Virus record (IMG/VR): IMGVR_UViG_2737471848_000012
Length of the DNA: 6,260 nucleotides
Reading direction: 5' to 3' (one strand)
Source: a virus
Lineage: Duplodnaviria > Heunggongvirae > Uroviricota > Caudoviricetes
A model generated the notes under the pieces. It was not told the origin of the DNA, searched no databases, and worked only from the letters and a program-made list of their open reading frames with translations. This document shows, one piece after another, positions 2,480-4,620 of the stretch (positions are counted from its first letter, which is position 1; each line of letters starts with the position of its first letter). The position numbers were made by a program, and so were the translations under genes.

Positions 2480-2888
2480 GCACATCCGCATGGCGATGAA
2501 TGCCTGGGCATACCCTGATGGTGAGAAAGTTCCTGCAGCTGAAATAGCCCGGACTTATTTCGAACTGGGGATGACGTTCCCTGAACTGTACGACGACAGC
2601 CATCCGGAAGCCCTGGCCCGTAATACACAGAAAATTTTCCGTTGGCTGGATAAAGACACCCCTGATGCTGTTGAAAAAATTCAGGCTCTGTTACCGGCGA
2701 TCGAAAAGGCAATGCCGCCTCTGCTGGTGGCCCGTATGCGCAGCCACAGTTCTGAATATTACCGTGAGATCGTCGAACGGAGGGATCGGCTGGTGAAGGA
2801 TGTCGATGATTTTGTTGCGTCAGCGGTTGTTTTGTATGACCAGATGAATCGCGGCGGCCCGGCAGGGAATGCTGTGGTGATGCACTAA
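2463..2888 (+). CDS. ydaT: YdaT-like protein (141 aa); toxic when derepressed in K-12 Rac, sometimes viewed as a cII analogue
   Basis: ATG at 2463 with RBS AGAGG upstream, overlapping the ydaS 3' end by 17 nt in a different frame. Size (141 aa) and position match K-12 ydaT (about 140 aa). Confidence 0.6.
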   Translation: MKIKHEHIRMAMNAWAYPDGEKVPAAEIARTYFELGMTFPELYDDSHPEALARNTQKIFRWLDKDTPDAVEKIQALLPAIEKAMPPLLVARMRSHSSEYYREIVERRDRLVKDVDDFVASAVVLYDQMNRGGPAGNAVVMH

Positions 2889-2910
2889 AAGCACGGTGTT
2901 CGGGGGTTTT

Positions 2911-3873
2911 ATGAGCAGCAAGCTTCATGGTCTTGTCTGGGAAGGGTGCGCCTTCACCGGCATGATCTTATCCAGGGTGGCGGTTATGGCCCGTCTTGCA
3001 GACTACAGCAATGACGAGGGCGTGTCATGGCCTGCCATTGAAACTATCCGGCGTCAGATCGGTGCAAGAAGTGAATCCACAGTGAAATCGGCTATTGCAG
3101 AACTGGCGAAAGAGGGCTGGCTGACGAAGGAAGAGCGTAAGGTCGGTGGGCGTAATGTAAGCAATATCTATCGGCTTAATGTGGAAAAACTCGAAGCAGC
3201 TGCTGCGGCGGCGCGTGAGTCATATAAACCGAAAAGAAAAATTAGCCCGGCAAAAAATGACCCGTTAACAGTTGACCCGTCAAATATTGCCCCCTCAACG
3301 GTTGACCCGTCAAATTTTGATGGATCAACTGTTGATAACAAACTGCCGATTAGGGGGGCGATGATTGACCCCGATCCGTCAGTATTAAAACCTGATCCGT
3401 CAGATAAAAGATCTTCTTGTCCGGACGCTTCGCAACCGGACCCGCAGACGGCTGAACAGAATTTTTTAACCCGACACCCTGACGCGGTTGTGTTCAGTGC
3501 GAAAAAACGCCAGTGGGGAAGTCAGGAAGATTTGGTGTGCGCACAGTGGATCTGGGGACGAATCGTGAGTCTTTACGAGCAGGCGGCCAGCGATGATGGC
3601 GAGATCACGAGACCGAAAGAACCCAACTGGACTGCATGGGCCAATGACGTGCGGACAATGCGGATGCTGGATGGCAGAACTCACAGACAAATTTGTGAAA
3701 TGTTTGGGCGTCTCCAGCGGGATTCGTTCTGGGTAAAAAACATCATGAGTCCGGCAAAACTCCGGGAAAAATGGGATGAACTGGTTATCCGCCTGGGGCG
3801 TTCGCCCGCGCAGCGTTGCGTGAATCACATTTCTGAACCGGACACTGAAATACCGCCGGGATTCAGGGGGTGA
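2911..3873 (+). CDS. ydaU: Replication initiator, YdaU-like (lambda O analogue): N-terminal winged-helix DNA-binding domain, repeat-rich linker encoded by the iterons, C-terminal domain
   Basis: ATG at 2911 with GGGGG 4 nt upstream. The ORF-track start at 2896 is a GTG. The N-terminus (ILSRVAVMARLADYSNDEGVSWPAIETIRRQIGARSESTVKSAIAELAKEGWL) resembles phage replication-initiator winged-helix domains. The linker has repeats TVDPSN x2 and DPS-rich segments. It sits directly upstream of the DnaC-like gene. Confidence 0.55.
   Translation: MSSKLHGLVWEGCAFTGMILSRVAVMARLADYSNDEGVSWPAIETIRRQIGARSESTVKSAIAELAKEGWLTKEERKVGGRNVSNIYRLNVEKLEAAAAAARESYKPKRKISPAKNDPLTVDPSNIAPSTVDPSNFDGSTVDNKLPIRGAMIDPDPSVLKPDPSDKRSSCPDASQPDPQTAEQNFLTRHPDAVVFSAKKRQWGSQEDLVCAQWIWGRIVSLYEQAASDDGEITRPKEPNWTAWANDVRTMRMLDGRTHRQICEMFGRLQRDSFWVKNIMSPAKLREKWDELVIRLGRSPAQRCVNHISEPDTEIPPGFRG
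3258..3413. repeat. Iteron array and GATC cluster inside ydaU-like gene: candidate prophage replication origin
   Basis: Perfect 15-mer GTTGACCCGTCAAAT at 3271-3285 and 3301-3315 (30-bp phasing), each with internal dyad TTGAC-CC-GTCAA. Partial copies at 3258-3270 and 3331-3339. A second pair, GATCCGTCAG, at 3373-3382 and 3394-3403 (21-bp phasing). Four GATC sites fall within 91 bp (3323-3413). An AT-rich tract GAATTTTTTAAC follows at 3459-3470. Confidence 0.6.
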
Positions 3874-3879
3874 CGTGTC

Positions 3880-4620
3880 ATGAAAAACATTGCGGCAGTT
3901 GGGGTTCTTGAACGTATTCGCAGACTTGCACCACAGGGGGCGGTTCCACCGTACCGGACGGTGGAGGAGTGGCGGGAATGGCAACTTGCTGAAGGACGAA
4001 AACGCAGCGAGGAGATTAACCGCCTGAATCATCAGGTGCGGGTTGAAAAAATCCTGAACCGTGCGGGCATCCAGCCGCTTCACAGGAAGTGCTCATTCGG
4101 GAACTACCGGGTGCAGAACGACGGTCAGCGCCATGCTCTGAGCCAGGCGAAATCCATTGCCGATGAATTGATGACCGGATGTACAAACTTCGTGTTCAGC
4201 GGTAAACCTGGTACCGGTAAAAATCACCTGGCAGCAGCGATTGGCAATCGGCTGATGGCGAAGGGGAGAAGCGTGATTATCGTCACCGTGTCCGATGTCA
4301 TGAGCGTGTTGCATGACGGCTACGACAACGGCCAGTCCGGGGAAAAATTTTTACAGGAGCTTTGTGGAGTTGACCTTCTGGTCCTTGATGAAATTGGCAT
4401 GCAGCGGGATACGCGCAACGAGCAGGTCACGCTGAACCAGATAGTCGACCGCAGAACGGCTTCGATGCGTAGTGTCGGAATGCTGACGAACCTGAATCAC
4501 GCAGCGATGAGCACACTCCTCGGAGATCGGGTGATGGACCGTATGACCATGAATGGTGGTCGTTGGGTGAATTTTAACTGGGAGAGCTGGCGGTCAAACG
4601 TTGGACGTCAGGGTATGTGA
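3880..4620 (+). CDS. ydaV: DnaC-like AAA+ helicase loader (YdaV-like, 246 aa)
   Basis: Walker A FVFSGKPGTGKNHLAAAIG and Walker B LLVLDEIG, with overall resemblance to E. coli DnaC. Length equals K-12 YdaV (246 aa). RBS GGGGGTGA upstream; the start follows the ydaU stop by 6 nt. Confidence 0.7.
   Translation: MKNIAAVGVLERIRRLAPQGAVPPYRTVEEWREWQLAEGRKRSEEINRLNHQVRVEKILNRAGIQPLHRKCSFGNYRVQNDGQRHALSQAKSIADELMTGCTNFVFSGKPGTGKNHLAAAIGNRLMAKGRSVIIVTVSDVMSVLHDGYDNGQSGEKFLQELCGVDLLVLDEIGMQRDTRNEQVTLNQIVDRRTASMRSVGMLTNLNHAAMSTLLGDRVMDRMTMNGGRWVNFNWESWRSNVGRQGM

Follow-up and report, generated by a model that had tools for sequence, protein, structure and literature searches.

The initiators of phages lambda, P22 and L each have their own iterons inside the coding region (PMC8022706); in gene 18 of phage L these are six imprecise 11-bp repeats, and in P22 and L a DnaB-type helicase is encoded by gene 12 (PMC8022706). 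An active origin, oriJ, has also been reported for the Rac prophage of Escherichia coli K-12 (PMC3945230). In this work, an element that resembles these systems was analysed in a 6,260-nt stretch of Caudoviricetes DNA (IMG/VR record IMGVR_UViG_2737471848_000012); the whole stretch is referred to here as the window. It contains an initiator gene of 320 aa (2911–3873, + strand), and the region from about 3257 to 3441, located in the part of this gene that encodes a disordered linker, probably serves as the origin of replication for a lambdoid prophage. The repeats of this region, the selection that acts on the DNA, the domain architecture of the initiator and its homologies were all shown in this analysis. 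Sequence comparison gives good support to the view that the element adds to the known lambdoid class of origins located inside the initiator gene, with an unusual repeat geometry and a clean dual-coding signature. The arrangement is already known from phage lambda, and this is a new example and not a new kind of system.

An earlier note on this DNA had pointed out its resemblance to the lambda origin in gene O, and this is strongly supported by the homology of the C-terminal domains, the position of the array, the constraint on the DNA and the lambda-P loaders found in relatives. In substance, the interpretation of the note is correct, whereas it errs in the identity of the gene, in the AT-rich tract and in the importance attached to the GATC cluster. 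In both genes, repeated dyad-symmetric initiator sites are located mid-gene, about 350 nt past the start codon: iteron 1 of lambda starts 348 nt into O (39034 versus 38686), and in the window the first unit starts 348 nt and the first dyad 354 nt into the gene. The C-terminal domains are homologous (residues 153–300 and residues 145–277 of lambda O are 34% identical, E=3e-25 with BLASTP), a loader gene follows directly downstream, both genes lie in an early operon that reads rightward from a cro/cII-like control region, and relatives of the window initiator are paired with true lambda-P-family loaders. On the other hand, the N-terminal domain is of the HTH_36 type, in contrast with the Phage_rep_O domain of lambda O, and the window has dyads of 11–12 bp in a strict 15-bp phase, whereas lambda has four iterons of 18–19 bp with a spacing of 20–24 bp. 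The 40-bp tract of about 20% GC that lies after the lambda repeats has no counterpart in the window; furthermore, the window loader is of the DnaC type (YdaV) and the initiator has a DnaT-like tail, whereas lambda O ends in ...TDWIYGVDL.

With gene 18 of P22 and L, the locus has in common a distantly related lambdoid initiator that carries its own distinct repeats in the coding region, although the repeat sequences and the N-terminal domains are different, and a DnaC-type loader is found in place of the DnaB-type helicase (PMC8022706). The likeness to Rac of K-12 lies in the gene order (racR, ydaS, ydaT, initiator and ydaV-type loader), in a loader that is 79% identical, and in the shared tail of the initiator. 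Nevertheless, the initiators are unrelated (DUF1376 in Rac versus HTH_36 plus a lambda-O C-terminal domain in the window), and the ydaU repeats are of the AAGCAGATGTTCAA type with a 33-bp spacing; therefore, the window element is not oriJ. The mid-gene repeats of ydaU in K-12 MG1655 (L002, 4472–4578, i.e., 352–458 nt into the gene) consist of AAGCAGATGTTCAA-like copies at 4472, 4505 and 4538, which have the 33-bp spacing, and at 4550, followed by a perfect inverted TGTTTGAACAT at 4568. These repeats are candidate iterons of the Rac oriJ, and they occupy the same relative position as those of lambda O and the window gene.

The initiators of the Shigella phages SfII and SfIV and of e14-like phages of E. 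coli, which carry the annotation 'primosomal protein' or 'replication protein O', are members of the family to which the window initiator belongs; full-length identity is 55–56% for the SfIV-like VIT_AJPSC and for PhiR49_1, whose product is near-identical to that of SfII. These genes have the 15-bp-phased array, the super-dyad described below and two copies of GATCCGTCAG in the linker. They differ in the half-site, which is TCAGA/TCTGA instead of TCAA/TTGA, in having no phage-encoded loader downstream, and in the Dam methylase gene found one or two genes downstream.

The repeat array, the super-dyad and Block B

The iteron array, or Block A (3257–3338), consists of five 11-bp dyads of the form TCAAnNnTTGA. 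These are located at 3265–3275, 3280–3290, 3295–3305, 3310–3320 and 3325–3335, that is, with a phase of exactly 15 bp; three of them are exact and the other two have one mismatch each. The array can also be read as units of TTGA-SSSS-YCAA-NNN, and one 15-bp unit corresponds to five codons (D-P-S-N-I and similar). The earlier note had described 15-mers placed 30 bp apart, and the sequence GTTGACCCGTCAAAT is indeed present in exact form at 3271–3285 and 3301–3315; both copies lie within the array, the true unit is the set of five dyads, and the repeats greatly exceed what chance would produce. Its further statements on the repeats were all corroborated: they have internal dyad symmetry (TTGAC-CC-GTCAA), they code for (T)VDPSN and DPS, they lie in the DNA that encodes the linker (residues 109–179, with an AlphaFold pLDDT of about 30), and a second pair of repeats, 21 bp apart, is present, namely GATCCGTCAG at 3373 and 3394 (two found versus 0.30 expected). 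Exact copies of TTGASSSSYCAA in 30 kb of prophage and flanks are confined to the array, and no other repeat cluster of this kind was found there.

The array is followed by what we call the super-dyad, detected by alignment with relatives. The window contains a degenerate copy, GGGGGCGATGATTGACCCC, at 3354–3372, and in relatives this element is a perfect palindrome, GGGGTCAATGGTTGACCCC, or CCCGTCAGAATCTGGCGGG in the SfII/e14-like subfamily, placed 33 bp past the last unit of the array, counted between the starts of the dyads. Throughout the E. coli/Citrobacter clade the left arm carries mutations. Next to the super-dyad lies Block B (3373 to approximately 3441), with the form GATCCGTCAGT..AAAAC..GATCCGTCAGATAAAAGATCTTCTTGTCCGGACGCTTCGCAACCGGAC, which alignment and third-position identity revealed to be conserved at the nucleotide level in both subfamilies. 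It includes the two copies of GATCCGTCAG (3373–3382 and 3394–3403) and three conserved GATC sites (3373, 3394 and 3410), and it is a candidate region for unwinding or for the action of a host factor.

Regarding these sites, a local cluster of four GATCs had been noted, and four were found in 91 bp (3323, 3373, 3394 and 3410); however, with uniform placement as the null the clustering is only marginally significant (P about 0.024), the repeated decamer accounts for two of the four sites, and the site at 3323 is not conserved in relatives. The pair within the GATCCGTCAG copies is kept in nearly all lineages, the second copy being GAACC in two of them, and the site at 3410 is kept in seven of the nine lineages of the window's subfamily. 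A gene for a Dam-type adenine methylase is present one or two genes downstream of the initiator in many relatives (L003, 4433–5086; L004, 3951–4760; L006, 4477–5190; L325, 4431–5084; L330, 3188–3981). Together, the downstream methylases and the conserved GATC sites suggest a control of the origin linked to methylation or to SeqA. The AT-rich tract that the earlier note had placed downstream is not convincing: the segment 3383–3420 has 32% GC, compared with 22% in the AT-rich segment of the lambda origin, and is no outlier within the window, yet it is conserved at the nucleotide level among relatives. The 40-bp stretch of lowest GC nearby (32.5%) is located upstream, at 3218; its rank within the window is about 136th, and it shows no conservation among relatives.

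Conservation of the architecture among relatives

Relatives were collected from phage records (PhiR49_1, SfII, Klebsiella phage 1 LV-2017, YeP3, an Stx2a phage and Kp4866-6), from IMG/VR contigs, and from genomes of Erwinia, Symbiopectobacterium, Salmonella, Edwardsiella, Serratia, Pantoea, Morganella and Citrobacter. A scan of genome contigs with a single protein as query gave only two loci, and the diversity of the sample comes from IMG/VR, the phage records and contigs that encode relatives. The protein family was found in Escherichia, Citrobacter, Salmonella, Edwardsiella, Serratia, Erwinia, Pantoea, Morganella and Klebsiella. The same architecture is kept in 22 diverged lineages from at least 10 enterobacterial genera, and its common layout in the linker-coding DNA comprises Block A with three to seven units in strict 15-bp phase (four to seven in the nine lineages of the window's subfamily), the super-dyad, and Block B, which reads GATCCGTCAGT..AAAAC..GATCCRTCAGAT followed by AAAAnnyCTTCTTGTCCGG.

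Variation in copy number occurs by whole units, as revealed by two IMG/VR contigs, L079, which lacks one 15-bp unit, and L078, which lacks the 21-bp unit containing GATCCGTCAG; the proteins of close relatives (P0002–P0020) have lengths of 305, 310, 315 and 320 aa, plus 303, 308 and 329 aa. Residue 127 is Ala in the window, where the DNA reads TCAAATATTGC, and Asp in most close relatives, which results in the perfect dyad TCAAATATTGA. In three relatives (L005, L006 and L007) the C-terminal domain has been replaced by unrelated ones while the N-terminal domain and the repeats stay together. Both are kept as a unit under three C-terminal domains, as would be expected of an origin plus its specificity domain.

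The half-site varies with the N-terminal domain. It is TCAA/TTGA in all nine lineages (9/9) that have the N-terminal subfamily of the window, and TCAGA/TCTGA in the SfII/e14-like and Stx2a-phage lineages, with the array and the super-dyad following the same rule. The window-type domain is distinguished by one additional residue ahead of the recognition helix and by GG(R/K)N in the wing. This covariation fits a recognition of the half-sites by the N-terminal domain.

Among complete E. coli genomes, a 301-bp region of this locus had matches in 2183 of 5426, and in 1497 of the 5426 the match had a coverage of at least 80%, mostly with at least 95% identity. The circular 15,977-bp 'plasmid' NZ_CP148542.1 (L334) contains nothing but the immunity-to-lysis section of a prophage of this type, with genes for repressor, cro, initiator (region 1660–2637), DnaC-like loader, hokD, rusA, Q and lysis; it has no typed plasmid replicon and resembles a replicating circle of the lambda-dv kind. 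Frameshifts interrupt two of its genes, the ydaT-like gene and, at the GATC-rich block, the initiator gene. Because of these frameshifts, and considering that the record may be error-prone or an artefactual assembly, it was set aside as evidence for autonomous replication.

Evidence for selection at the DNA level

A repetitive array located inside a gene could be conserved for the sake of the protein, and codon choice argues otherwise. In 72 repeat units defined at the protein level in 13 lineages, with the same codons elsewhere in the same genes as a control, the first Ser of the unit was TCA in 63 of 72 cases versus 34 of 248 elsewhere (P=8e-32), the second Ser was TCT in 40 of 47 versus 15 of 248 (P=1e-29), and Lys was AAA in all cases (37/37 versus 121/187). 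The middle codon of the unit varies at all three positions; the information per position is highest at TTGA and YCAA (1.0–2.0 bits) and lowest in the 3-nt centre. When the protein sequence of the linker was kept fixed and synonymous codons were redrawn, 0.79 dyads were expected in the window against the five observed (0/2000), and in the nine lineages pooled the 55 dyads observed compare with 5.8 expected and a maximum of 13.

The same conclusion was reached from 45 pairwise comparisons of 10 lineages. From nt 3238 to 3447, identity at third positions is 0.61–0.83 and amino acid identity 0.41–0.73, whereas in the two folded domains the corresponding values are 0.33–0.58 and 0.66–0.88. Block B has a third-position identity of 0.83, and between the window and L003 it reaches 1.00 with an amino acid identity of 0.75. 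In addition, a 12-bp unit appears in both orientations in the same frame, as TTGACCCCTCAA (D-P-S) and as TTGAGGGGTCAA (E-G-S), so that the motif is kept and the peptide altered. Since synonymous sites are more conserved than amino acids and resampling destroys the dyads, selection acts on the DNA, and the repeats are conserved as DNA and not as protein.

The initiator protein

The initiator (WP_000095669.1) bears in RefSeq merely the name 'helix-turn-helix domain-containing protein'. It belongs to PHROG 391, 'replication initiation O-like' (E=7e-115), and in Pfam it matches HTH_36 (E=2e-6) and, weakly, DnaD_N. A tblastn search with this protein matched lambda, 933W and gp15 of phi80, the latter being similar in the C-terminal domain. 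According to the AlphaFold model, the protein is formed by a winged helix (residues 1–105), a disordered linker (109–179), a helical C-terminal domain of the lambda-O type (180–297), and a tail (300–320) that resembles DnaT and is disordered in the model. The gene is therefore a winged-helix (HTH_36) N-terminal domain joined to a lambda-O-type C-terminal domain and a DnaT-like tail.

The N-terminal domain, encoded by 2911–3225 (+ strand), is presumed to be the module that binds the dyads. It was modelled with a pLDDT of 74–88 and shows four helices, a beta hairpin that forms the wing, and a final helix. Its best Foldseek matches in the Protein Data Bank were dimeric winged-helix-turn-helix (wHTH) regulators of the ArsR, MarR and PadR families, all weak (E about 3e-3); these are generic wHTH matches, and no specific Rep-family protein was found by Foldseek with this domain. 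A sequence search of solved structures with the initiator matched only the DnaT tail.

Two other assignments were considered and rejected. The gene had been called ydaU-like in the earlier note, but YdaU of K-12 is a DUF1376 protein, the alignment is confined to the last 19 residues (E=7e-6), and the initiator has no Pfam match to DUF1376. The second was an iteron replicon of the plasmid type (Rep_3, RepA or pi). Such replicons have an initiator of the Rep_3 family and direct repeats of 17–22 bp with a phase of about 22 bp, located outside the rep gene; the window has no Rep_3 match in Pfam, and its dyads of 11–12 bp, in a 15-bp phase, lie inside the gene.

The helicase loader and the tail of the initiator

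Six nucleotides past the initiator gene starts a gene of 246 aa (3880–4620, + strand) that is the orthologue of K-12 ydaV, with 79% identity at the protein level. The adjacent DnaC-like loader proposed earlier is thus present, directly 3' of the initiator, as a member of the DnaC family of AAA+ proteins. The product matches IstB_IS21 in Pfam (E=1.5e-19, 70.9 bits, cutoff 24.1) and PHROG 50, 'DnaC-like helicase loader'; in NCBIfam it scores 500 bits for PRK12377 (cutoff 389) and 309 bits for the DnaC equivalog (cutoff 357). Given that the latter score is below its cutoff, this protein is a paralogue of DnaC and not DnaC itself.

The C-terminal tail of the initiator, ...RCVNHISEPDTEIPPGFRG, encoded by 3808–3870 (+ strand), closely resembles the C-termini of E. 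coli DnaT, ...VNTVSEPDSQIPPGFRG (L327, 1479–2018), and of K-12 YdaU, ...VNTVSLPDSAIPPGFRG (L002, 4120–4977). The peptide ...SEPDxxIPPGFRG is thus common to three unrelated scaffolds, i.e., the initiator, YdaU, and DnaT, which is the restart protein of the host, and each of them is encoded, in at least some members, directly upstream of a gene of the DnaC family (dnaT-dnaC, ydaU-ydaV and the window locus). Across relatives, the type of loader tracks the type of tail. Initiators in the clade of the window end in ...SEPDTEIPPGFRG and are followed by a DnaC-type gene; relatives from Erwinia, Salmonella, Edwardsiella, Serratia and Pantoea have a gene of the lambda-P family and a tail of the form ...W..(V/T)L, and those from Morganella and Symbiopectobacterium have a lambda-P-type gene and other tails. 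The SfII/e14-like clade has the same GFRG tail and no loader gene after the initiator; presumably these phages use DnaC of the host. The combination of a GFRG tail with a lambda-P loader was not observed (0/128) among the distinct combinations of tail and downstream gene in the sample, and it was likewise absent from a count over 153 distinct combinations.

From this distribution, DnaC or the DnaB-DnaC complex may dock onto the GFRG tail. The way in which DnaT recruits DnaB and DnaC was described as unknown (PMC13377028), and a docking role of the tail would address this step. The covariation of tail and loader provides a testable hypothesis, namely that DnaT-like tails recruit loaders of the DnaC type, and it is the lead with the most upside in this analysis.

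A model for the proposed origin and its alternatives

We infer binding, unwinding, helicase loading and replication from the features described above, in the following manner. Derepression of a switch of the RacR/YdaS type would lead to rightward transcription and to the synthesis of loader and initiator. The winged-helix domain at the N-terminus of the initiator would then occupy, as dimers, the five phased dyads and the super-dyad and form a higher-order complex comparable to the O-some of lambda; Block B (3373–3441), in which GATC sites and short A-rich stretches occur, would be the site where the DNA opens or a host factor acts. Finally, the lambda-O-type C-terminal domain and the DnaT-like tail would bring in DnaB through the YdaV/DnaC-type loader.

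Several points weigh against an origin at this place. A Pfam search of the initiator gave no match to Phage_rep_O, and its N-terminal domain is not homologous to that of lambda O; the covariation between half-site and N-terminal domain is essentially one evolutionary switch; and in the window imperfections occur in two of the five dyads and in the left arm of the super-dyad. An AT-rich unwinding element of the lambda grade was not found, the best downstream stretch being the one with 32% GC. In the accessible literature, no binding or replication evidence was found for any member of the family. Lastly, the palindromic array folds well as RNA, and selection at the level of RNA or of single-stranded DNA is possible.

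This last observation leads to the reading in which selection maintains structure, either hairpins in the initiator mRNA with an effect on its translation or stability, or hairpins in single-stranded DNA of the kind that serves as a primosome-assembly signal. The segment 3250–3445 folds as RNA with -64.4 kcal/mol (z=-5.0, 0/200 shuffles as stable), CCCC and GGGG units within one array are mutually complementary in relatives, and the initiator has a DnaT-like tail. However, such a fold is automatic, because any phased palindromic array would show it; specific bases, TTGA and YCAA, are kept in every unit and lineage, with 1.5–2 bits per position, where pure structure would show compensatory change; and the SfII/e14-like subfamily keeps the phased dyads without the C4/G4 complementarity. 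We consider this reading quite unlikely. The dyads could also bind the initiator or a regulator for autoregulation, transcription attenuation, exclusion or incompatibility, with the true origin elsewhere. This would agree with an N-terminal fold like that of the dimeric wHTH repressors (ArsR/MarR/PadR) and with the lack of a convincing AT-rich unwinding element beside the array; nevertheless, the position is that of the lambda origin, the C-terminal domain is homologous to lambda O, the partners are loaders of the lambda-P or DnaC type, the N-terminal domain and the repeats move as a unit under three C-terminal domains as an origin-plus-specificity module does, and the 30 kb of prophage and flanks contain no other such cluster. 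A purely regulatory array is therefore unlikely, and both this reading and that of a structure in RNA or single-stranded DNA explain the homology, the position and the behaviour as a module less well than an origin does.

The repeats have also to be considered as a by-product of a low-complexity linker, (T)VDPSN/DPS, prone to slippage and with no function as DNA. The encoded linker is in fact disordered and repetitive, and indels of unit size among close relatives are as expected from slippage; yet synonymous sites are more conserved than amino acids, redrawing the codons of the same protein removes the dyads, the peptide goes from DPS to EGS, NPS and APP while TTGA and YCAA stay, and the units are palindromes, for which a peptide repeat gives no reason. 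This makes slippage very improbable. A different possibility is that the element of the family is an origin but the copy in the window is a decayed relic, which no longer fires, in a defective prophage. Signs of decay are TCAAATATTGC in the window where most close relatives have TCAAATATTGA, the degenerate left arm of the super-dyad, and the frameshifted integrase, IS3-interrupted dicB and terB-like gene with an internal stop that are found elsewhere in the prophage. The open reading frames (ORFs) of the initiator and the loader are intact, three dyads are perfect, and the degenerate super-dyad is common to the whole E. coli/Citrobacter clade; moreover, the number of E. coli genomes in which the region is present at a coverage of at least 80% points to maintenance rather than decay. 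A relic is thus rather unlikely, and an origin inside the initiator gene is the explanation that we favour.

Implications of the arrangement

No earlier description of the origin of this family was found in the accessible literature, and the module is widespread, yet no origin is annotated in it. The place where replication starts bears on prophage induction, on amplification in situ and on transduction, and a shared specificity of the initiators bears on the interference between prophages that reside in the same cell. A more practical consequence is that recoding or codon-optimising the initiator gene in genome design would silently destroy the element. The locus is also a teaching case of selection at the DNA level overriding selection at the protein level within a coding region.

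Two bolder readings are put forward together, and only tentatively, the odds being rather against them: that this is an extreme dual-coding origin whose architecture is unlike that of the O-some, and that the GFRG tail is a docking motif. Regarding the first, a 15-bp phase, equivalent to about 1.4 helical turns, would place each initiator dimer almost on the other side of the helix from its neighbour, and if this is true the nucleoprotein architecture would be other than that of the lambda O-some. The dual coding would be an extreme case in that palindromes that can flip their orientation are written, in a 15-bp phase, into a disordered linker.

The prophage and other features of the window

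The chromosome of E. coli OkiPb01684 has a stretch that is 100% identical to the window, and many other strains have stretches with 98–100% identity. The prophage that contains it is lambdoid and adjoins a tRNA-Ser gene. From the left, its genes are integrase (frameshifted), exonuclease, ydfD, dicB (with IS3), ydfC, ydfB and DUF1391, followed by racR, a ydaS/cro-like gene, a ydaT-like gene, the initiator (2911–3873) and the 'ATP-binding protein' (3880–4620), and then by DUF1627, DUF977, hokD, rusA, Q and the lysis genes. In the window, the control region upstream of the initiator (1555–2888; Pfam and RefSeq annotation) comprises racR (- strand, 1555–2031), the ydaS/cro-like gene (+ strand, 2156–2479) and the ydaT-like gene (+ strand, 2463–2888), and rightward transcription from it passes through the initiator gene and the repeats. 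A scan of 2800–3900 for sigma-70 promoters and intrinsic terminators found none.

In the source strain (L001), the integrase frameshift, the IS3 in dicB, which leaves a dicB fragment, and the internal stop of the terB-like gene are located in 6568–7618, 10869–12239 and 23357–23719, and because of these lesions the prophage is at least partly defective. Its replication genes are intact, and Q and the lysis genes are annotated as intact too; hence, the description of the element as a presumably cryptic prophage is only partly borne out.

On the reverse strand of the array there is an ORF of 57 aa (3168–3341, - strand), whose mirror-like peptide (..STVDPSKFDGSTVEG..) is a by-product of the palindromic nature of the array; it shows no sign of being a real gene. 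Rfam gave no match in the repeat region, and its sole match within the window was a full-length DicF antisense small RNA (309–360, - strand; RF00039, 76.7 bits versus a gathering score of 48). The presence of DicF fits the dicB, ydfC and ydfB genes, which are of the Qin type and lie on the left side of this prophage with Rac immunity; therefore, the element is a mosaic.

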